From positions 1-44,367 of IMG/VR virus record IMGVR_UViG_3300044305_003822: a DNA stretch of 44,367 bases; one strand, 5' to 3'. Shown piece by piece: positions 6,237 to 28,646 of the stretch. How positions within the stretch are numbered: the stretch's first letter is position 1; every line of letters starts with the position of its first letter. The notes beneath the pieces are model-generated. The model did not search any database and had not been told where the DNA came from. It saw only the letters and a list, made by a program, of their open reading frames with translations. The translations under genes were made by a program, and so were the position numbers. This stretch comes from a virus. Lineage: Duplodnaviria > Caudoviricetes.

Positions 6237-7607
6237 ATGACGTTAAAGAGTTTATCGCAGTATGGACCTCACTTTCAAGTTAAAGTTCTAAATTCTTTAC
6301 TTAAAAATAAAAAATTTACACTTAATATTCGAGATGTAATTTTACCAAAATATTTTGAAAATCAAGCTCATCAATGGATAGTAAAAGAAACATTACAATA
6401 TTTTGAGGAATATCATTCTCCCCCAACATTAGATTTTTTAAAAATTGAAATTAAAAAAATAGATAATGATATTTTAAAAACTTCTGTTATTGATCAATTA
6501 AAAGAAATTTTTAAGATAATTAATGATGATCAAGAATATGTTGAATCTGAATTTTCAAGTTTCTGTAAAAATCAAGCATTAAAAACAGCATTAGTAGAAT
6601 CTGTAGATTTATTAAATGATGGTATGTTTGATGATATTCGTTTTAAGATTGATACTGCTTTAAAAGCGGGACAAGATAAAGATATAGGACATGAATATAT
6701 CAAAGAAGTAGAAGCACGATATAAAGAAGAAGATAGACAAGTAATACCTACTCCTTGGTCTATTATTAATGAAAGGTTAATGGGTGGTTTAGGTGGAGGT
6801 GATTTTGGTTTAATATTTGGTTCACCTGGTGGGGGTAAATCATGGACTATGGTTGCTTTAGGTGCTCATGCTGTAAAATTAGGATTAAACGTTGTACATT
6901 ATACCTTAGAATTATCAGAAGGATATGTTGGTAAAAGATATGATTCTCATTTTATAAATGAACCTGTAAATACTATCCATTTACATAAAGAAAAAATTAA
7001 TGAATATATTGATAATTTAAAAGGTTCTTTAACCATTAAAGAATATACACCAGGTCAAGCTTCAATTCCATCAATTGAATCACATGTGGCTAAAATGACT
7101 GATTTAGGATATCCTCCTGATATGGTTATTATTGATTACGTTGATTTACTAAAAAGCACCATCAGTTCAAAAGATGAGAAAGAAAAATTAGATAACACTT
7201 ATGTATCAACTAAAGCATTAGCAAGAACATTAAATATTCCTGTTTGGTCTGTTTCTCAGGTTAATAGAGCAGGTGCAAGAGATGATATTATTGAAGGAGA
7301 TAAAGCAGCAGGTTCTTATAATAAGATAATGATTACAGATTTTTGTATGTCTTTATCAAGATTACCTCAAGATAAAATTAATGGAACAGGTAGATTTTTC
7401 TTAATGAAAAATAGATACGGTATAGATGGTATGACTTATCATGCAACGATAGATGCATCAACAGGCCGTATAGAAATGGATGAAAACCCACAGGAGTTAC
7501 CAGAAGGTTCTGCACCTGCTAAACAAGCATTTGCTAATGACTTCACTCCACAAGATATGAAAGCATTAAAAGTAATGAAAGATGATTTTCTTTTAAATAA
7601 AGAATAG
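6237..7607 (+). CDS. dnaB: Replicative DnaB-like helicase (T4 gp41-like)
   Basis: Walker A GSPGGGKS, YTLEL, IIDYVDLL, SQVNR, KNRYG. Confidence 0.9.
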   Translation: MTLKSLSQYGPHFQVKVLNSLLKNKKFTLNIRDVILPKYFENQAHQWIVKETLQYFEEYHSPPTLDFLKIEIKKIDNDILKTSVIDQLKEIFKIINDDQEYVESEFSSFCKNQALKTALVESVDLLNDGMFDDIRFKIDTALKAGQDKDIGHEYIKEVEARYKEEDRQVIPTPWSIINERLMGGLGGGDFGLIFGSPGGGKSWTMVALGAHAVKLGLNVVHYTLELSEGYVGKRYDSHFINEPVNTIHLHKEKINEYIDNLKGSLTIKEYTPGQASIPSIESHVAKMTDLGYPPDMVIIDYVDLLKSTISSKDEKEKLDNTYVSTKALARTLNIPVWSVSQVNRAGARDDIIEGDKAAGSYNKIMITDFCMSLSRLPQDKINGTGRFFLMKNRYGIDGMTYHATIDASTGRIEMDENPQELPEGSAPAKQAFANDFTPQDMKALKVMKDDFLLNKE

Positions 7608-8646: not shown

Positions 8647-10359
8647 ATGGACAGTAATTTAATATCAAACACAGAAAACTGGGAGAAAGGTAAAGATTAT
8701 CCTTCTTTCATGGATGAAATTTCAATAGCTACTTTATCAAAAGGTTATTTATTACCTGGAGAAACTCCTAAAAAAGCTTATAGGCGTGTAGCTAATGCTG
8801 CTGCTAGAAGATTAGGCAAGCCCGAGCTTGAAAATAAATTTTTTAAAATTATTTGGAATGGATGGTTAGGTTTAGCATCACCTGTTATTTCAAATATGGG
8901 TACTGATAGAGGGTTACCTATTTCTTGTTTTGGAGTTGACACACCTGATTCTATAAGAGGGATTAGTTTAACTAATGCTGAATTAATGAAATTAACTTCT
9001 CAAGGAGGAGGAGTAGGAATTTCTGTTTCTAGAATTAGACCTAGAGGAGCTCAAATAGCAGGAAATGGAAAATCTGAAGGAGTAGTACCTTGGTGCAAAA
9101 TTTATGATTCAGCAATCATAGCTACAAATCAAGGTAATGTAAGAAGAGGAGCAGCTTCAGTTAATTTAGATGTTAACCACCCAGATATTAAAGAATACTT
9201 ACAAATTAGAAGACCTAAAGGTGATCCTAATAGACAGTGTTTGAATTTACATCAATGTGTCGTTGTAGATGATCCATTTATGAGAAAATTAGAATCTAGA
9301 GACCAAGAAGTTATGGCTTTATGGGCAGAAATTTTAAAATCTAGAATGGAAACTGGAGAACCTTATATAATGTATAAGGATAATGTAAATAAAAATAATC
9401 CTATTTCTTATATGATGAATAATTTAGAAGTAAGTATGACAAATATATGTACTGAAATTACTTTATTTACAGATGAAGAACATAGTTTTATTTGTTGTTT
9501 ATCTTCTTTAAATTTAGCTAAATATGACGAATGGAAAGATACGGATACTGTAGAATTGGCTACTTGGTTCTTAGATGGGGTAATGCAAGAATTTATAGAT
9601 AAATCAAATGGTAAAGATTCATTAAAAAGAACACATAACCATGCTAAAAAAGGTAGAGCATTAGGATTAGGAGTAATGGGTTGGCATACATTTTTACAAC
9701 AAAAACAATTACCATTTAATTCGATTGCTTCTACAGCTCATACACATAATATTTTTAGTGATATCAGAAACAAAGCTGAAAAAGCATCAAGAGATTTAGC
9801 TGATGAATATGGAGAACCAGTTTGGTGTAGAGGTACAGGTATGAGAAATACGCATTTATTAGCGATTGCTCCTACTGTATCGAATAGTGTAATTACTGGT
9901 GGTATTTCTGCAGGTATTGAGCCGTTACCCGCTAATATTTACACATTTAATGGCGCTAAAGGTACATTTATCCGTAAAAATAAAGTATTACAAGACATTT
10001 TAATTGAAAAAGGAGAAGATAAAGATAAATGGTGGGATCAAATGCTTAAAGATGGAGGATCAGTACAAAATTTACCTGATAATATTTTATCTCAAGAAAA
10101 TAAAGAATTATTCTTTACTTTCTCTGAAATAAATCAATTAGAATTAGTTAGGCAGTCCGCTATCCGTCAACGTTATTTAGATCAAACTCAATCTCTTAAT
10201 TTATCTTTCGATCCAAATGATTCTCCTAAATGGATAAATCAGGTTCATATCGAAGCTTGGAAATTAGGTGTTAAAACTCTTTATTATTTACGAACAGATT
10301 CCGTAATTAAGGGTGACTTAGGCTCTAGAATGGCTGATTGTATTTCTTGTGATGGTTGA
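8647..10359 (+). CDS. nrdA: Ribonucleotide reductase class I alpha subunit (no N-terminal ATP cone)
   Basis: ISCF, GGGVG, RRGA, TNICTEI (NxCxE), AIAPT, DQTQSLN, KTLYYLR, C-terminal CISCDG. Confidence 0.95.
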   Translation: MDSNLISNTENWEKGKDYPSFMDEISIATLSKGYLLPGETPKKAYRRVANAAARRLGKPELENKFFKIIWNGWLGLASPVISNMGTDRGLPISCFGVDTPDSIRGISLTNAELMKLTSQGGGVGISVSRIRPRGAQIAGNGKSEGVVPWCKIYDSAIIATNQGNVRRGAASVNLDVNHPDIKEYLQIRRPKGDPNRQCLNLHQCVVVDDPFMRKLESRDQEVMALWAEILKSRMETGEPYIMYKDNVNKNNPISYMMNNLEVSMTNICTEITLFTDEEHSFICCLSSLNLAKYDEWKDTDTVELATWFLDGVMQEFIDKSNGKDSLKRTHNHAKKGRALGLGVMGWHTFLQQKQLPFNSIASTAHTHNIFSDIRNKAEKASRDLADEYGEPVWCRGTGMRNTHLLAIAPTVSNSVITGGISAGIEPLPANIYTFNGAKGTFIRKNKVLQDILIEKGEDKDKWWDQMLKDGGSVQNLPDNILSQENKELFFTFSEINQLELVRQSAIRQRYLDQTQSLNLSFDPNDSPKWINQVHIEAWKLGVKTLYYLRTDSVIKGDLGSRMADCISCDG

Positions 10360-11804: not shown

Positions 11805-12261
11805 ATTTCAATCAACAAAAATATTTGACGGATTTAGTACAGTATTTCGTCAATGGAAAGCAGAAGAAACTCACTGCAAATATCTTCATGGTTATGGAGT
11901 TTCATTTAAAGTATGGTTCGAAGGAGAACTAGATGAAAAAAATTGGGTTTGGGATTTTGGAGGAATGAAACGTGCCAAAACTCAAATTGATGGTATGTCC
12001 CCTAAAGAATGGATGGATCATATGTTTGATCATACTTTAGTAGTAGCAGAAGATGATCCATTTGTAGAATCATTTCAATCAATGGGAGTACATGGTGCAG
12101 CCCAAGTAAGAGTTATCCCAGCTGTTGGCGCCGAAAAATTTGCTGAATTTGTATTCAATAAATTAAATGAATTTGTAAAAACAGAAACTGAAGATAGAGT
12201 TAAAGTAGTAAGAGTAGAGTTTATGGAACACGGTAAAAATAGTGCTATTTATGAAGGTTAG
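11797..12261 (+). CDS. queD: 6-carboxy-5,6,7,8-tetrahydropterin synthase (PTPS family)
   Basis: HCKYLHGY, WVWDFG, FDHT, AEKFAE, E-x-x-KNSA; clustered with queC/queE/folE. Confidence 0.85.
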   Translation: MGKFQSTKIFDGFSTVFRQWKAEETHCKYLHGYGVSFKVWFEGELDEKNWVWDFGGMKRAKTQIDGMSPKEWMDHMFDHTLVVAEDDPFVESFQSMGVHGAAQVRVIPAVGAEKFAEFVFNKLNEFVKTETEDRVKVVRVEFMEHGKNSAIYEG

Positions 12262-13054
12262 TCATGAAGTTCCACGTTGTTTATTAAATAATAGTCGTGA
12301 ATTTAATGATTATGATTATTGTCTTCCTCATCTATTAGATAAAGATGAACACTATAAAAAATTCTTTTACGAATCTAAAAAACAAGGCCGTTATATAATA
12401 ATGGATAATTCACTTCATGAATTAGGAGAATCTTATGATTTTGAAAGATTACATTATTGGATTCAAGAATTAAAACCAAATGAGTTTATAGTACCTGATG
12501 TTTGGATGAAACATTCCCAAACAGCAGCTATGGCTAAGTATTGGAAACAATTTACATATCCTAAAGGTACTACTCCAGTAGCAGTTATTCAGGGAGAAGA
12601 TAAAAATGCTGCCTATTTATGTGCTGGATTATTAGTTGGTTTAGGTTATAAAAAATTATGTATTTCATATGGCGCAGATTGGTATAATGATTTTTTTCCT
12701 CACGTAAACGAAGATTTAGGAAAATCATTAGGTAGAATAAGATTTGTAAATGGTTTATTAAAATTAAAACAATATAAAGATATTCAATTCCATTTATTGG
12801 GATGTTCAGTACCCCAAGAATTTGGTTGGTATGATAATCATCCTCAAATAGAATCAATAGATACTTCAAATCCTATATTTGCAGCTTTAGAGAAAAATAT
12901 TTATAGCAGTAATGGATTAAACGAAAAACCAAAATTAAACATGAATACTTCTTTTAATATTGATGGAAGTAAAGTTAATTATAATAGTGTATTAAAAAAT
13001 ATTGAAATGTTTAGATCAATTAACGGATTAAAAAATTATGGCAGAAATAATTAG
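12251..13054 (+). CDS. Divergent TGT/DpdA-like TIM-barrel protein (candidate deazaguanine transglycosylase)
   Basis: IIMDNS, IVPD, VAVIQG, FHLLG, SIDTS occur in the order of TGT-family motifs; lies between queD and queC. ATG 12251 preferred over GTG 12242. Confidence 0.55.
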   Translation: MKVSHEVPRCLLNNSREFNDYDYCLPHLLDKDEHYKKFFYESKKQGRYIIMDNSLHELGESYDFERLHYWIQELKPNEFIVPDVWMKHSQTAAMAKYWKQFTYPKGTTPVAVIQGEDKNAAYLCAGLLVGLGYKKLCISYGADWYNDFFPHVNEDLGKSLGRIRFVNGLLKLKQYKDIQFHLLGCSVPQEFGWYDNHPQIESIDTSNPIFAALEKNIYSSNGLNEKPKLNMNTSFNIDGSKVNYNSVLKNIEMFRSINGLKNYGRNN

Positions 13055-13228: not shown

Positions 13229-14023
13229 ATGGCAAAAAATGTTGTAGTATCCTTATCTGGAGGGATGGATTCCTCTACTTTATTACTTAGATGTTTATCT
13301 GAGTATGATAATGTAACAGCTTTATCTTTTGATTATGGTCAAAAGCATAGAGTAGAACTTGAAAGAGCCCAACAATTAGTTGGTTATTTACTTCAAAAAG
13401 GTTTAAATGTAAATTACCAAGTAATTAAATTAGAAGGTTTACAAAACCTATTAAATTCGGCTTTAGTACAAGGTGGAAAAGATGTCCCAGAAGGACATTA
13501 TGAGCAAGATAATATGAAAGAAACTGTTGTTCCTAATAGAAATAAAATATTTGCTTCATTAACTCAAGCAGTAGCTTTATCTCAAGCTAATGCAAATGGA
13601 AATATTACTGATATAGCTTTAGGTATTCATGCTGGTGATCATGCTATTTATCCTGATTGCAGACAAGAATTTAGAGATGCAGATGATGCTGCCTTTAGAA
13701 TAGGAAACTGGGAAGCAGATAAAGTAGGTTATTTTACTCCATATTTAGAAACTGATAAATTAGGTATTTTGAAAGATGGAGAATTATTAGCAACCCATTT
13801 AAATTTAAATTTTGATGAAATATATAAAAGAACTAATACAAGTTATAAACCGTATCCTTCGGGAAATAGTGATTATAAAAGTGCCTCATCTGTGGAACGT
13901 ATTGAAGCGTTCATTGCTCTGGGTCGTAAAGATCCCGTACAATATGAAGATGACAGTGGAGAAGTGGAATGGAATACTGCGAAAACATATGTAGAAAAAG
14001 TATTAGCAGATTTTCCAGGATAA
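13229..14023 (+). CDS. queC: 7-cyano-7-deazaguanine synthase
   Basis: PP-loop SGGMDSST, FDYGQKH, VVPNRN, YPDCR; the canonical C-terminal Zn Cys cluster is replaced by non-Cys residues (TSYKP...SASSVER). Confidence 0.93.
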   Translation: MAKNVVVSLSGGMDSSTLLLRCLSEYDNVTALSFDYGQKHRVELERAQQLVGYLLQKGLNVNYQVIKLEGLQNLLNSALVQGGKDVPEGHYEQDNMKETVVPNRNKIFASLTQAVALSQANANGNITDIALGIHAGDHAIYPDCRQEFRDADDAAFRIGNWEADKVGYFTPYLETDKLGILKDGELLATHLNLNFDEIYKRTNTSYKPYPSGNSDYKSASSVERIEAFIALGRKDPVQYEDDSGEVEWNTAKTYVEKVLADFPG

Positions 14024-14041
14024 AAATCCTATTAAATTAAT

Positions 14042-14074
14042 AAAAGGTCATTTGGATACCCAAGTGGCCTTTTT
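14042..14074 (+). terminator. Intrinsic terminator hairpin after queC
   Basis: AAAAGGTCATTTGG-ATAC-CCAAGTGGCCTTTT, a 14-bp stem with two G-U pairs and a U-run. Confidence 0.7.
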
Positions 14075-14080
14075 TATATT
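14052..14080 (+). promoter_or_regulatory. Putative promoter TTGGAT-N17-TATATT for the tRNA locus
   Basis: 17-nt spacer; the -10 ends 7 nt before the tRNA 5' end. Confidence 0.7.
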
Positions 14081-14087
14081 CGTATAT

Positions 14088-14159
14088 CGCGACGTGGAGA
14101 AGTGGCATCTCGTTGGGCTCATAACCCAAAGGTCGTAGGTTCGAATCCTACCGTCGCAA
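14088..14159 (+). tRNA. tRNA-fMet (initiator, anticodon CAT)
   Basis: Full cloverleaf: CGCGACG/CGTCGCA with C1:A72 mismatch, anticodon arm TTGGG-CTCATAA-CCCAA (three G-C pairs), T arm GTAGG-TTCGAAT-CCTAC; CCA not encoded. Confidence 0.95.
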
Positions 14160-14166
14160 CTAAAAA

Positions 14167-14308
14167 TGCGAGATAGTTCAGTAGGTAGAACATTTGGATT
14201 GCTTGTTATCTAAAGCTAAGATAATAAGGCCAACTAAAAACAAAATTCGCGCGCAGAAAAGTAGTTTTTAGGTTCGGAAGGACGGGGGTTCGAGTCCCCC
14301 TCTCGTTG
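14167..14308 (+). ncRNA. tRNA-framed structured RNA with about 69 extra nt in the anticodon loop
   Basis: Acceptor TGCGAGA/TCTCGTT, D arm GTTC-AGTAGGTA-GAAC, variable AGGAC, T arm GGGGG-TTCGAGT-CCCCC; the insert has two hairpins. Confidence 0.7.
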
Positions 14309-14325
14309 CTAAGTAACCCTTTATA

Positions 14326-14333
14326 ATATTTAT
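14326..14333 (+). promoter_or_regulatory. ATATTTAT motif upstream of the tail-fibre-like gene
   Basis: Recurrent intergenic motif. Confidence 0.5.
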
Positions 14334-14358
14334 TAGTGTATTAAAAAACAGCTGTTAA

Positions 14359-15708
14359 ATGTCTACATTCACTAATAGGACAATAAAGTCTACCTATGAT
14401 CAGTTATTACACGTTGAAAACGAAAGAATCCAAAATGGATTAGGATATACTCGTCTAACTGCTTCTTTAGATTTATCCGGATCTACTGCACTAACAGGAT
14501 CTCTGCTTGTTAGTGGGGCAACTGCTTTTACAGGGTCTGTAAGTTTATCTGGAGATATGTACATAGACGGTACTGCTTCTATTTCTTATTTAGTAACTAC
14601 TTATGAATCTGCTTCCATTATATATGCTAGTGGTTCTACAAAATTCGGAGATTCTTTAGATGATACTCATGAATTTACTGGTAGTGTAACTATAACAGGT
14701 TCTTTAAATAGTCCTTATATTAGTGGTTCATTTAGTGGATCGTATCAAGGAGATGGTTCTGGTTTAACAGGAACTATAACTTCATCTCATGCAGTAACAG
14801 CAAGTCATGCAATTTCAGCTAGTTATGCTGTATCATCAAGTGAAGCAACATTGGCTACAAATGTATTTGTTCATCCTGATAATACAGATGCAAGTACAAA
14901 TTATGTTACATTTGGTCAAAGTGCATCTGGTAGTGCTAGAATTAATACTGATGATAGTTTTACTTATGTTCCTTCTACTAATACATTAACAGTTACAAAA
15001 GTTATAGGGGCATTAGAAGGAAATGCAACATCAGCGGATACTGCTTCTATAGTATTAGGTACAATTACAAGTGCTAGTTTTGCAGTTACAGCCTCATATG
15101 CTGAAAGTCAATCAGTAATAAATGTAACATCAGGTTCATTTGCCGCAAGTGGGGATGGTCCATTTACTGGTTCATTCTCTAGTAGTAGAGTTTCTATGTT
15201 ATCAGGATCATTTACAGGTTCTTCTACAGGTTCTTTTTCAGGATCATTTTCAGGTAGTGGGGATGCAATAAAAGGAGTAATATCATCTTCTTATGCAATA
15301 ACTGCTTCATTTGCTGAAAATGCAGGTGGTGGAACTTCAGGATTCCCACATACAGGATCAGCTGAGATAACTGGAGCATTAGCTGTTACAGGTGCTTTCT
15401 TTGCTACTAGTATAACAGAAACATCAGCATTAAGATATAAAGAAAACGTAACTGATTTGGATTCTGTATCTAGTTTATATAAATTACGTCCTGTTAAATT
15501 TAATTGGAAAGATTCAGGAAATGATGATATTGGATTAATAGCAGAAGAAGTAAATAAACATGTTCCTGAATTAGTACATCTTGATGAAGAGGGAGGAGCT
15601 GAAGGTATAAAATATTCTAAATTAACTTCTTTACTAATTAAAGCTGTACAGGATCAACAAAAAGAAATAAAGGATTTAAAATCTAGGTTAGATAATTTGG
15701 ATACTTAA
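14359..15708 (+). CDS. Ser/Thr/Gly-rich tail fibre/spike-like protein with C-terminal peptidase S74 intramolecular chaperone
   Basis: SGS/TGS and ASYA/ASFA repeats; TSALRYKENV...LRPVKFNWK...IGLIAEEV...YSKLTSLLIKAVQ plus coiled coil. Confidence 0.8.
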   Translation: MSTFTNRTIKSTYDQLLHVENERIQNGLGYTRLTASLDLSGSTALTGSLLVSGATAFTGSVSLSGDMYIDGTASISYLVTTYESASIIYASGSTKFGDSLDDTHEFTGSVTITGSLNSPYISGSFSGSYQGDGSGLTGTITSSHAVTASHAISASYAVSSSEATLATNVFVHPDNTDASTNYVTFGQSASGSARINTDDSFTYVPSTNTLTVTKVIGALEGNATSADTASIVLGTITSASFAVTASYAESQSVINVTSGSFAASGDGPFTGSFSSSRVSMLSGSFTGSSTGSFSGSFSGSGDAIKGVISSSYAITASFAENAGGGTSGFPHTGSAEITGALAVTGAFFATSITETSALRYKENVTDLDSVSSLYKLRPVKFNWKDSGNDDIGLIAEEVNKHVPELVHLDEEGGAEGIKYSKLTSLLIKAVQDQQKEIKDLKSRLDNLDT

Positions 15709-20392: not shown

Positions 20393-22111
20393 ATGTATAA
20401 AAAAATTCATGAACATGGTACAGGAAAAGATAATGTACACGTAATACATTTATGGACAGATGAGGGTTATGAAAAAATAGAATGGAATAATTACGCTTAT
20501 AGAGAATGTTCTAAACAAGATTCTGAATTTACAGGATTAAAAAATGAACCGTTACGCCGTACTCACGATTACGATAGAAAAACCACTGGTTTACACTTCT
20601 CAGATATTGAAGCTTATCAAAAATTTCTTATAGAAAAATATGGTACTAATGACGAGCCCTCTAAATCACATAGAGAGGTTTTTTTTGATATTGAGTGTGA
20701 AATGGGTGGGGCATTAACTGAAGAATATATTTCTAATGCTCCTAAACCTATTACTTCTATTGCTTGGTATGATAAACAAGCTGATTGGTGGTCAATTGTT
20801 ATTTTAGATAAAAAAAATCAATTAAAACATACTAAAACTAAAAATAAAGAAATTATACCTCTAAAACATGAAGCTGATCTATTAGATACATTTTTAAATA
20901 AAATGGAAGAAATAGAACCTGATATTTTAATAGGTTATAATAGTGATTATTTTGATATTCCTTATCTATATCATAGAATGTGTATCGTTTTAGGAGAACA
21001 AGATGCAAAACGTTTATCTCCTATAGGTAAAATAAAATGTAAAAAAAATAATCAATATTGGTATAAAAAAGATAGGTTTGTTGATATAGCAGGAGTTGAA
21101 TCACTTGATTATATGAGATTACATAAAAAATATAATTGGGAAGATGAACCATCTTGGAAATTAGATGCTATAGGAGAAAAATATGTTGGTATAAATAAAA
21201 TAGAATATGAAGGTTCATTAGATAGATTATTTGAAGAAGATATACATAAATTTATTCAATATAACTTTGTTGATGTTGAAATATTAGTTGAATTAGATAA
21301 AAAACTACAATATATAGATTTAACAAAAAATCTAGCCCATAAAGGTAAAATCAAATATAGTGAAGTGTATGCATCATCCAAGATCCAAGATGGAGCCATC
21401 TCAGCTTATTTACTATCTCAAAAAATAATACCACCAAACCGTCCTTCGGGAGTAGGTAAATTAAACTATGCTGGTGGTTATTTATTCTGCCCTAAAGCAG
21501 GTTTATACAAATATATGTTTGATGAAGATTTAACTTCACTATATCCTTCAATTATAATGACTTTAAATATTGGAAGAGAAACTATAGTAGGTAAAATTAT
21601 AGATGAAAATGATCGTAATAATAGATTAGGTTTAAATGATTTAAAAGAAAAAGATGGTGAAGAAGAAGTTATCATTATGAACCCTAATAAAAAATCAGAT
21701 AATGAAAGAAGAGTATCTATAGAAAAATTAATTCAAATGGTTGAAAAAAATAATTGGTCTGTAGCAGCTAATGGTACATTTTTTAAAACAGATAAAAAAT
21801 CTGTATTATCTATTATTTTAGATAAATGGTTTAAGGAAAGGGAAATATATAAAAATAGAATGAAACACTGTTATCAAAAAGGTGATACTGAAGGTGGAGC
21901 CAAAAATCATCTATTACAATATACTATGAAAATTTTATTAAATTCATTATATGGTGCTACTGCCTTACCATCATTTAGGTATGGTTTACCTGAATCTATA
22001 TTAAGTGAATCAATTACTTTATCAGGTTGGCGCATTATTCAAGAATCCGCACTTGCTGCTAATCGCCATATGAATAAAGTTTTAAGAAATGAAATTGAAT
22101 TAAAAATATGA
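20393..22111 (+). CDS. polB: Family-B DNA polymerase, N-terminal part (3'-5' exonuclease, motifs A and B)
   Basis: ExoI FFDIECE, ExoII GYNSDYFDIPYL, ExoIII YNFVDV, motif A DLTSLYPSII, motif B KILLNSLYG; motif C absent. Confidence 0.92.
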   Translation: MYKKIHEHGTGKDNVHVIHLWTDEGYEKIEWNNYAYRECSKQDSEFTGLKNEPLRRTHDYDRKTTGLHFSDIEAYQKFLIEKYGTNDEPSKSHREVFFDIECEMGGALTEEYISNAPKPITSIAWYDKQADWWSIVILDKKNQLKHTKTKNKEIIPLKHEADLLDTFLNKMEEIEPDILIGYNSDYFDIPYLYHRMCIVLGEQDAKRLSPIGKIKCKKNNQYWYKKDRFVDIAGVESLDYMRLHKKYNWEDEPSWKLDAIGEKYVGINKIEYEGSLDRLFEEDIHKFIQYNFVDVEILVELDKKLQYIDLTKNLAHKGKIKYSEVYASSKIQDGAISAYLLSQKIIPPNRPSGVGKLNYAGGYLFCPKAGLYKYMFDEDLTSLYPSIIMTLNIGRETIVGKIIDENDRNNRLGLNDLKEKDGEEEVIIMNPNKKSDNERRVSIEKLIQMVEKNNWSVAANGTFFKTDKKSVLSIILDKWFKEREIYKNRMKHCYQKGDTEGGAKNHLLQYTMKILLNSLYGATALPSFRYGLPESILSESITLSGWRIIQESALAANRHMNKVLRNEIELKI

Positions 22112-22455
22112 AATACGAAGTAGAAAGTAGACCTTGGGGTATGTATGAAGTTTTATTAGATTCTGATGAATGTAAAGTAAAACGAATTACTGTTGCTCCT
22201 GGTCAAAAATTATCTTATCAATATCATCATAAAAGACAGGAACAATGGACTGTAGTTAAAGGTAATTTAACTATTATTTTAGATGATGATAAAGTATTTA
22301 GATCACCTGGAGAATCAATAAAAATTCCTTTAGGAGCTAGGCATAGGGCCTGGAATGAAACTGATGAATTAGTACAATTTATCGAAGTCCAAACCGGAAC
22401 TTATTTTGGTGAGGATGACATAATTAGAATAGAAGACGATTATAATAGAGAATAA
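22108..22455 (+). CDS. Mannose-6-phosphate isomerase type II C-terminal cupin-like protein
   Basis: RPWG, KVKRITVAPGQKLSYQYHHKRQEQW, IEVQTGTYFGEDDIIRIEDDY. Confidence 0.9.
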   Translation: MKYEVESRPWGMYEVLLDSDECKVKRITVAPGQKLSYQYHHKRQEQWTVVKGNLTIILDDDKVFRSPGESIKIPLGARHRAWNETDELVQFIEVQTGTYFGEDDIIRIEDDYNRE

Positions 22456-22456
22456 T

Positions 22457-22717
22457 ATGGCATTAACACCACAAGCATTAAGACAAGGAGTTCACGTTTT
22501 AATAGATGAAGAACTTGCAACGAAAGAAGAACTCATAGAAATGAGCAAAGAATGGAGCGAAAAAAGAGAAGTTTTTTTTCGTAAAATGCTCCAACAAGGA
22601 GGGCGTTTTAAATTTGATAATAAACAATTTGAAGTTAAATTGAGACAAAAATTACTCAATAGTCAAGGGGAAAAAGATGGTGGAATCATTCAAATCCCTG
22701 GTGATAGTAGGTTTTAA
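22457..22717 (+). CDS. Hypothetical protein inserted between the polB halves
   Basis: 86-aa ORF whose stop overlaps the next ATG (TAATG). Confidence 0.7.
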   Translation: MALTPQALRQGVHVLIDEELATKEELIEMSKEWSEKREVFFRKMLQQGGRFKFDNKQFEVKLRQKLLNSQGEKDGGIIQIPGDSRF

Positions 22718-23640
22718 TGAAACATTTAGAAGATACACCCTGGTTTATATGTGATGAAGGCGATACTAACCTATGTGCCTATGTGGATACAGATTCAAAT
22801 TATTTTAATGCTGAACCACTTTTAAATCATTTATATCCTAATTTTAAAGATTTATCTAACGAAGAAAAAGATTCTAAACTTGAAGGATTAGCAATTGCTT
22901 ATCAGGATATAATTAATGATAGTTACAATAATCTTACTATTAATTGTTTTAATGTTAAATCTCATAGATTAGAGATGAAAACAGAATGTGTTATTCGTTC
23001 TGCCTATTTTAGAGCCCATAGACGTTACGCTCAGTGGATTACAAAACAAGAAGGTATTACTAAAGAAACCTTAGATGTAAAAGGTTTAGAATATAAAAAA
23101 TCTAATTTTCCTAAAGTATTTGGTAATTTTTTTAGAAAAGCACTTGAAGATGTTTTAAAAGGTACACCACAAAATGAAATTGATAGACGTATTCTAGATT
23201 TTAAAAAGAAAATATTAACAGACATGCCTATCGGGGAATTAGGTAATCCCACTAGTGTAAAAACATTAAATAAATATATTGAACGTAAACCTGTTGGAGG
23301 AGAAGTCTTCACTATAATACGTAAAGGAGCACCTGCTGCTGTTAGAGCTGCTATCAAATATAATGATTTATTAAAATATTGGAAATTAGATACTAAACAT
23401 AGTCCTATAGTTCAAGGTGATAAAATTAAATGGATTTATATGAAAAAAAATCCATACAATATTGAAGCATTAGCTTATCTTGATTTTGATATGCCTGATA
23501 AAATAAAAGATCTATTAGAACGTTTTGCAGATAAAGAAAAAGTATTTGATACTATTTTGTTAAATAAACTAGAAGGATTCTATAGTGATTTAGAATGGGA
23601 ATTAAATACAAATCCTTATATTAATCAATTTTTTATATGA
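22717..23640 (+). CDS. polB: Family-B DNA polymerase, C-terminal part (motif C, thumb)
   Basis: YVDTDSNYF (motif C), RRYA, LDVKGLE, GDKIKWIY. Confidence 0.9.
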   Translation: MKHLEDTPWFICDEGDTNLCAYVDTDSNYFNAEPLLNHLYPNFKDLSNEEKDSKLEGLAIAYQDIINDSYNNLTINCFNVKSHRLEMKTECVIRSAYFRAHRRYAQWITKQEGITKETLDVKGLEYKKSNFPKVFGNFFRKALEDVLKGTPQNEIDRRILDFKKKILTDMPIGELGNPTSVKTLNKYIERKPVGGEVFTIIRKGAPAAVRAAIKYNDLLKYWKLDTKHSPIVQGDKIKWIYMKKNPYNIEALAYLDFDMPDKIKDLLERFADKEKVFDTILLNKLEGFYSDLEWELNTNPYINQFFI

Positions 23641-28426: not shown

Positions 28427-28591
28427 ATGAAAAACGAAATTTTTGAAAAAATAAAAGACCTATATTACGAATTCGAAAGAGAACATAATGGTACCACTAA
28501 AGTATCTCAACAAAGAGCTAGAAAAGCTTTAGGTGGAATTAAAAAATTAGTTACAGAATACAGAAAAGCAAGTGTAGCTGAAGCTAAATAA
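28427..28591 (+). CDS. Histone H1-like (Hc1-family) small protein, 54 aa (not in ORF track)
   Basis: MKNEIFEKIKDLYYEFEREHNGTTKVSQQRARKALGGIKKLVTEYRKASVAEAK; RARK...K....YRK.S pattern of short Hc1-like proteins. Confidence 0.7.
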   Translation: MKNEIFEKIKDLYYEFEREHNGTTKVSQQRARKALGGIKKLVTEYRKASVAEAK

Positions 28592-28598
28592 ATACGTA

Positions 28599-28606
28599 AT
28601 ATTTAT
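28599..28606 (+). promoter_or_regulatory. ATATTTAT motif upstream of the tRNA fragment and lipoprotein
   Basis: Recurrent intergenic motif. Confidence 0.5.
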
Positions 28607-28608
28607 CT

Positions 28609-28646
28609 AAAAGAGGTTGAGGGTTCGATTCCCTCTTCCTTTTCTA
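28609..28646 (+). pseudogene. Isolated 3' half of a tRNA (variable loop, T arm, acceptor 3' strand)
   Basis: AGGTT-GAGGG-TTCGATT-CCCTC-TTCCTTT-T-CTA; no D arm or anticodon arm upstream. Confidence 0.6.

Follow-up and report, generated by a model that had tools for sequence, protein, structure and literature searches.

What kind of RNA keeps the frame of a tRNA while giving up the anticodon loop? The question is raised by a 142-nt RNA gene at 14167-14308 (+) of IMGVR_UViG_3300044305_003822, of which we analysed positions 1-44,367 (the window). The window is a phage fragment with T4-like replication genes. Judged by RNR, its closest cultured relative is Flavobacterium phage immuto, with which it shares 74% identity in the small subunit; the sequencing runs that best hold the window carry a marine label, and the phage host is probably a member of Flavobacteriia. 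As a separate observation, the family B DNA polymerase of the window (20393-23640) is apparently split into ORFs 20393-22111 and 22717-23640, with two small genes between them.

A tRNA frame around an enlarged domain

The original prediction described a tRNA frame whose anticodon loop is replaced by a two-hairpin insert, and sequence inspection found every part of frame and insert where it had been placed. The features of the element and of its upstream neighbours are:

12242..13054, +: DpdA-type DNA guanine transglycosylase relative (the "TGT-like" gene), by tblastn
13229..14023, +: queC
14088..14159, +: ordinary initiator tRNA-fMet (CAU), 7 nt upstream of the element and dispensable for it
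14167..14173, +: 5' strand of the acceptor stem, pairing with 14301-14307; 1:72 is U.U and 2:71 is G.U
14174..14192, +: U8-A9, D arm (itself 14176-14191) with loop AGUAGGUA, and A26
14193..14199, +: extended anticodon stem, seven pairs with 14272-14278, within which 14193-14197/14274-14278 is the stem seen first
14202..14228, +: accessory 10-bp hairpin in the bulge, its loop AAAGCUA holding the 4-base palindrome AGCU (14214-14217)
14234..14271, +: 8-position helix (14234-14241/14264-14271) with apical loop, conserved across the family
14248..14254, +: self-complementary loop core CGCGCG/GCGCGC, a predicted kissing site and the counterpart of the hexamer in 90 other members
14279..14300, +: variable loop AGGAC (14279-14283) and T arm (14284-14300, loop UUCGAGU)
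14301..14311, +: 3' strand of the acceptor stem, discriminator G (14308) and CUA replacing CCA, by family comparison

The element has the acceptor, D and T arms of a canonical tRNA (RF00005), together with U8, G18G19 and TTC; the canonical 7-nt anticodon loop with U33 and a purine at 37 is absent, and the window has 76 nt in its place. Among the annotation checks proposed, Rfam recognised the tRNA frame as its sole match (39.7 bits, with 78 positions skipped), whereas ARAGORN called the upstream tRNA-Met and missed the element. The anticodon stem, first described as 5 bp, is present, but family comparison makes it 6 bp plus one more pair; the copy in the window holds three G.U pairs. The 8-bp stem at 14234-14271 is likewise present, and because it has the same length and place as the family helix we take it to be that helix, which family comparison identifies as a conserved continuation of the anticodon stem.

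The folding z-score of the element is -2.41, with one of 200 shuffles as stable. Its minimum free energy structure (-41.8 kcal/mol) lies 5 kcal/mol below the family-type fold (-36.7 kcal/mol) and gives the 5' anticodon strand another partner, 14230-14233; family-style folding is predicted for 79 of the 91 family members described below. Elsewhere in the window, a T-arm-like hairpin after groEL (28511-28643) scores a weak 25 bits to the family model and may be a terminator or tRNA remnant.

Eight of the 24 listed runs were compared with the window, all as assembled contigs from libraries that may hold DNA. Contigs from X2 (13881-14444), X7 (14171-14371), X6 (14153-14410) and X18 span the insert and one from X8 covers 14085-14234, while runs X9, X10 and X12 leave the insert uncovered and give no evidence either way. 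No joint inside the insert was found among the matches listed for the eight runs, a result from contigs, which cannot prove absence of splicing. The X18 contig joins 14081 to 14167: the tRNA-fMet is gone (14082-14166) and the element is kept. Two variants in the X2 and X18 runs, C14210T and T14225C, fall in the accessory hairpin with pairs kept, and every stem change seen in near-identical contigs preserves pairing.

The family and its surroundings

Pattern scans supplied 58 and 46 viral loci, and 119 of about 210 estimated metagenome loci. Filtering the 160 distinct pattern matches for D, T, acceptor and anticodon stems and for GG before the returning strand left 92, from which we removed one by hand (L253) that passed the filters with an unrelated insert. 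The family comprises at least 91 distinct sequences in 140 locus records (repeat contigs and the window counted in) and forms 36 clusters at 90% identity. One locus (L211) is identical to the window; the nearest relative is 58% identical, and the window sits on a long branch of the family tree. Members are 111-144 nt long with inserts of 43-76 nt, and a complete carrier genome (177 kb) holds a single copy. A scan that left the D loop free covered 120 of about 220 loci and returned 18 known members, one unrelated RNA, and a new, divergent member (L383) with D loop AGUCGGUA and a palindrome of just 4 bases, CGCG; the D loop proved nearly invariant there too (18 of 19 members).

Beyond these collections the family was not encountered. 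A GTDB genome scan gave 28 matches, none with the family insert; we rejected all of them, as archaeal tRNAs with introns or as tRNA pairs that were tandem or due to chance. An exact 24-nt search of viral contigs gave no match; blastn searches of cultured phage records with the element and with two members gave only short tRNA-arm matches, none covering 80%; and Flavobacterium phage immuto has no member (best 22 bits). In Rfam scans of nine member loci tRNA alone exceeded the cut-off. The RNA had been called undescribed. The family is without description in the literature searched, which took in few subscription journals and few old T4/T5 papers, but the architecture is already annotated in phage T5. 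The family may also be among the 10,006 candidate viral RNAs of PMC10690425, which lists five tRNA-like candidates; in the passages and six supplementary files covered we could match none of them to the family.

Other enlarged tRNA frames were seen in passing. Ten unrelated viral frames (L094, L095, L104, L110, L121, L145, L161, L166, L179 and L181) have 20-65 nt extra in the anticodon loop. tRNA-Asn-like genes (L255, L283, L305, L313, L327, L330 and L331) have introns near position 37, several with a similar core, and five genome matches among these genes are archaeal.

All members share a 4-bp D stem, a 6-bp anticodon stem to which one further pair, C-G or U.G, is added, a bulge whose sequence is UUAA in 76 of 91, and the 8-position helix, and U8, purine 9 and purine 26 are kept in 91 of 91. 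Helix positions 2, 3, 7 and 8 are paired in 91, 91, 91 and 89 of the 91 members, with several pair types. In a 38-row alignment two-sided changes occur in 24 of 29 pairs, and 98.5% of alignment cells pair, a level reached by none of 500 shuffles and well above slid controls (34-53%). Because the frame helices were partly selected for by the search, the weight rests on helix positions 2, 3, 7 and 8, which were unselected, as was the palindrome. Covariation among homologues, put forward as a check, is found family-wide, and with the 91 members it bears out the prediction of a conserved, tRNA-scaffolded non-coding RNA. We consider it very probable that the element is a real, structured RNA that stays unspliced.

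The frame best fits tRNA-Met(CAU), at 39 of 41 positions, with other isotypes at 35 or fewer (326 ordinary tRNAs compared), and equals the Flavobacteriia initiator tRNA in its D loop, T loop and 3' CUA. Pair 1:72 forms in just 36 of 91 members (it is U.U in the window, as befits the unpaired end of initiator tRNA-fMet), and both top acceptor pairs form in only 3 of 91. The discriminator varies (A in 58, G in 30 of 91) and so does the acceptor sequence, which, by the general rules of tRNA identity, leaves no fixed synthetase identity. The frayed top of the acceptor and the variable discriminator make charging of the RNA unlikely.

A link between the element and the deazaguanine cluster had been suggested from its location near the TGT-like gene, and this link turned out to be positional only. 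The TGT-like gene has 18 tblastn matches at 32-38% identity, four of them annotated "DNA guanine transglycosylase", and matches DpdA of Campylobacter and Flavobacterium phages; given this relationship, the cluster most likely modifies phage DNA, as judged by sequence similarity. queC lies upstream of the element in 31 of the 62 family loci with enough flank, but the element is present in just 8 of 80 loci fetched with QueC; in most relatives the slot after queC is empty or is taken by ordinary tRNAs or other RNAs. The window has a tRNA next to the element, as do 21 of the 86 members whose flanks are long enough. Downstream genes vary among family loci, and neighbour clustering found no dedicated, consistently co-occurring partner gene. 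Two loci with the same downstream tail-fibre gene as the window (L001 and L007) have neither the element nor tRNA-fMet there. A promoter scan found 2 sites against 3.0 expected. Between queC and the tRNA (14042-14087) there is a terminator-like hairpin overlapping TTTG, a 20-nt gap and TAnnTTCG, an arrangement that we take to resemble the Bacteroidota promoter consensus.

The post-queC slot has further contents of its own. Six loci (L011, L026, L028, L069, L074 and L075) have a different structured RNA, so far without annotation, directly after queC. It measures about 100-130 nt, its purine-rich and pyrimidine-rich ends are complementary, and blocks in its interior are conserved; no Rfam match reached the cut-off in the five of these loci that were scanned. 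In L003, L015-L020, L024, L028-L030, L032 and others the same place holds a conserved ORF of about 45 residues with an N/Q-rich start and a basic end with W, frequently with a tRNA or the element right behind it; it is present in 10 family loci. A related phage (L078) has a tmRNA and a GOLLD RNA (271 bits) in its post-queC tRNA cluster, at 6299-6684 and 8691-9113.

A loop that stays palindromic

In 90 of the 91 members, the window being the exception, the six bases centred exactly 18 nt before the 3' strand of the anticodon stem form a perfect palindrome, against a background of 2.0% for perfect hexamer palindromes. These counts come from end-anchored scripts because in the MAFFT alignment the hexamer of ATGCAT-type rows is shifted by one column and the window insert is misaligned. 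The hexamer is CGATCG in 73 members, ATGCAT in 8, CGTACG in 6, GTGCAC in 2 and CATATG in 1. Its inner three pairs are Watson-Crick in 90 of 90; complementarity is not kept further out, the fourth pair being formed in 41 of 90. The central pair, which is AT in 73, GC in 10 and TA in 7, is always complementary. Adjacent central bases cannot pair within one strand, so they can covary only if two molecules pair; such covariation of neighbouring loop bases is how cross-chain kissing loops were recognised in OLE and GOLLD (10.1101/2024.12.08.627333).

The window has its palindromes slightly displaced: CGCGCG and GCGCGC are centred 22 and 21 nt before the returning strand, 3-4 nt deeper than the family's 18, and each occurs once in the 44-kb window, both in this loop. 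The CGCGCG loop had been noticed in the original prediction, which missed that it is a covarying palindrome.

How often has the hexamer changed? At least five state changes are needed, and a tree built without the hexamer requires seven among six states, although this tree rests on few columns and has many open forks. Single-change hexamers do not occur in the family. By count, palindromes make up 9 of the 135 possible hexamers two changes away and 27 of the 1215 four changes away, and four symmetric switches would arise by chance about four times in a million (9/135 x 27/1215 x 9/135 x 27/729; a rough figure). Independent events are nevertheless few, since 73 of 90 members carry one hexamer.

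A second palindrome accompanies the first in the long forms. Besides the window, with AGCT, 64 other long members have an accessory loop, which holds ACGT in 53, AATT in 10 and CATG in 1; the accessory hairpin lies in the bulge in the window and at an apical junction in the other long members. Short apical domains number 27, that of the window among them, and inserts shrink to 43-46 nt, with little but the palindrome left. Short forms without the second loop still switch palindromes.

Folding predictions are less clear-cut. Two hexamer duplexes are weak (CAUAUG -3.6 and AUGCAU -4.7 kcal/mol), and the hexamer is predicted to be mostly unpaired in just 54 of 91 members. Whole-molecule dimer folding gives T-arm strand exchange at about -10.5 kcal/mol regardless of the insert and is therefore uninformative.

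Because the loop stays self-complementary while its letters change, we think it likely that the RNA pairs with copies of itself. The account we prefer, and hold to be probable on balance, is that the element is a phage gene for a tRNA-framed RNA without an anticodon loop that works unspliced as a palindromic-loop homodimer. The host would excise and stabilise the RNA through RNase P, 3' trimming and CCA addition, in the manner of engineered tRNA scaffolds. A loop-loop contact of 6 bp would then join two copies, and the second palindromic loop would supply another contact in long forms. Conceivably the dimer, which would present a pair of uncharged tRNA elbows and their 3' ends, occupies a host factor that reads the tRNA body, for which a tRNA-attacking defence enzyme or an uncharged-tRNA sensor would be the most plausible candidate. 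Such a decoy role is a guess, and we think it less likely than not. Some defences cut the tails or variable loops of tRNAs (PMC12851939, PMC13096335). A decoy for anticodon nucleases, as first suggested, is unlikely because the anticodon loop is exactly what this RNA lost, and the other early suggestion, a guide or aptamer, leaves the self-complementarity of the loop unexplained.

Alternative readings and known systems

A possible objection is that, with the RNA and its self-pairing unchanged, the tRNA frame is only a chassis for processing and stability, the working part being an insert dimer or oligomer used in storage, as a scaffold or in a condensate, in the manner of GOLLD and ROOL. We consider this unlikely, though the frayed and variable acceptor end speaks for it, as do the occurrence of GOLLD and ROOL near phage tRNA islands and their assembly via kissing loops (10.1101/2024.12.08.627333, PMC12990946), the GOLLD in the tRNA cluster of L078, and engineered tRNA scaffolds, which operate in just this way (PMC3753655). 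It sits poorly with inserts reduced to 43-46 nt and little beyond a palindrome, and with a D loop near-invariant even when left free in the scan (18 of 19), which suggests that the elbow is read by something. A further reading is a natural multivalent tRNA mimic built from a host-type initiator tRNA: one or two kissing loops per RNA would give dimers or closed rings, which would present several uncharged tRNA elbows and 3' ends and thereby soak up tRNA-targeting immune enzymes of the host. This version is speculative and distinctly unlikely; if true, the phage would have a counter-defence made of RNA only, and the long-known tRNA-like stable phage RNAs would gain their first mechanism.

Another reading makes the element an intron-containing tRNA like those with "enigmatic introns" in Lak phages, whose tRNAs do contain inserts (10.1101/356790), removal leaving a Leu(UAA)-like tRNA. 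Excision shifted by one base would give CUUAAGG (U33, anticodon UAA, G37) in 76 of 91 members, and ARAGORN labels such members tRNA-Leu with intron. The product would nonetheless carry one additional anticodon pair and G38, its variable loop would be short and its acceptor would lack a fixed identity, and 15 of 91 members, the window included, yield no UAA loop at all. The 3' cut would fall inside a continuous helix paired in 91 of 91, leaving no bulge-helix-bulge; none of the intron families matches the inserts of 43-76 nt; on the phage side, four carrier records (one complete) yielded neither RtcB nor a splicing endonuclease; and the contigs of the eight runs, within the limit given above, show no joint. 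We judge this reading very unlikely. Group I introns are excluded, as the original prediction had it, with inserts far below their core of at least 200 nt and no Rfam intron match in the window and nine loci. So is tmRNA, on C3-G70, the 4-bp D stem, a best member score of 20 bits against a cut-off of 47, and no ARAGORN call. Among other candidates, bacterial Y RNA (YrlA, RF02553) was rejected at 25 bits against a cut-off of 69, in a match that runs across the neighbouring tRNA, with no TROVE in four records, and hammerhead and riboswitch readings had no Rfam support.

The palindrome could instead act as DNA, as a protein or methylase site, or pair with some other RNA, the element itself being monomeric. 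Six-base-pair palindromes are typical of DNA sites and the phage has DNA-modification genes, but a protein partner would have had to change along with six unrelated hexamers, all of which keep one fixed distance from an RNA helix, and pairing with a foreign RNA requires no symmetry. For a monomer, intramolecular loop-loop pairing fails both in the window and in members of the ATGCAT type, and short forms change their palindromes with no second loop to pair with. This reading is accordingly highly improbable. Least credible is a decaying tRNA pseudogene with a chance insertion, already largely refuted: the lack of any RNA gene in L001 and L007 and the three G.U pairs of the window stem would suit decay, whereas the insert is conserved and covaries across the family, and stem changes in near-identical contigs keep their pairs. 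Nor did any known Rfam family match beyond the tRNA frame.

Annotation tools miss these genes or label them intron-bearing tRNA-Leu. The Lak phage and archaeal intron tRNAs (archaeal tRNA-Asn genes were among our own matches) also have extra anticodon-loop sequence, but they restore a canonical tRNA, which in the normal register at most 3 of 91 family members would do (cuts keeping 2-7 5' bases). The Flavobacteriia initiator tRNA-fMet (e.g. Empedobacter, L304) shares the D, variable and T loops, unpaired 1:72 and 3' CUA with the family, and its 5' acceptor strand is that of the X2 variant of the window; the family, in contrast, lacks the CAU loop and the three G-C pairs at 29-31/39-41, and the window differs further in having U-A at D stem pair 11:24. 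In the engineered tRNA scaffold of Ponchon and Dardel a foreign RNA placed at the anticodon stem is processed and protected by the host (PMC3753655); the family is a natural and conserved counterpart, in which processing would presumably be similar.

The dimerisation initiation site of HIV-1 has the loop palindromes GCGCGC and GUGCAC. Both occur in the family; the RNAs are unrelated, the likeness being a convergence of dimer motifs. Symmetric kissing loops that switch palindromes, adjacent bases included, are found in OLE, GOLLD and ROOL as in the family; in OLE the L9.3 loop has GGCC, GAUC or AGCU (10.1101/2024.12.08.627333). Those RNAs are 500-800 nt long, whereas the family has 111-144 nt on a whole tRNA frame and does not match their Rfam models. 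Short natural RNAs able to oligomerise have been reported (10.64898/2026.07.01.735769, PMC12990946), and the parts of these two sources covered do not mention the family. With it, the few known natural RNA-only oligomers gain a very small candidate, and symmetry-dependent self-pairing can be tested sharply and cheaply in an RNA of 111-144 nt.

The closest architectural parallels are phage RNAs. For decades, annotations of T4 and T5 have listed tRNA-like stable RNAs to which no function is assigned. RNA1 and RNA2 of T5 (misc_RNA T5s03 and T5s06 of NC_005859, "tRNA-like stable RNA with unknown functions") and species I and II of T4 (rnaC and rnaD) are phage RNAs of 120-145 nt that lie among tRNA genes, and the T4 species derive from a tRNA precursor (PMC2330249). 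T5 RNA1 and RNA2 keep acceptor, D-like and T arms and have the anticodon arm replaced by an enlarged domain, as in the family. Sequence homology of the element to the T5 and T4 RNAs was not found: T5 RNA1 and RNA2 score 6.5 and 15.2 bits with family model R1, below ordinary tRNAs. Their inserts also lack a perfect 6-base palindrome, whereas the family has one on a frame that, unlike theirs, is initiator-tRNA-like with a short variable loop. On this sequence comparison we file the putative self-pairing loop as a new trait among the tRNA-like stable phage RNAs.
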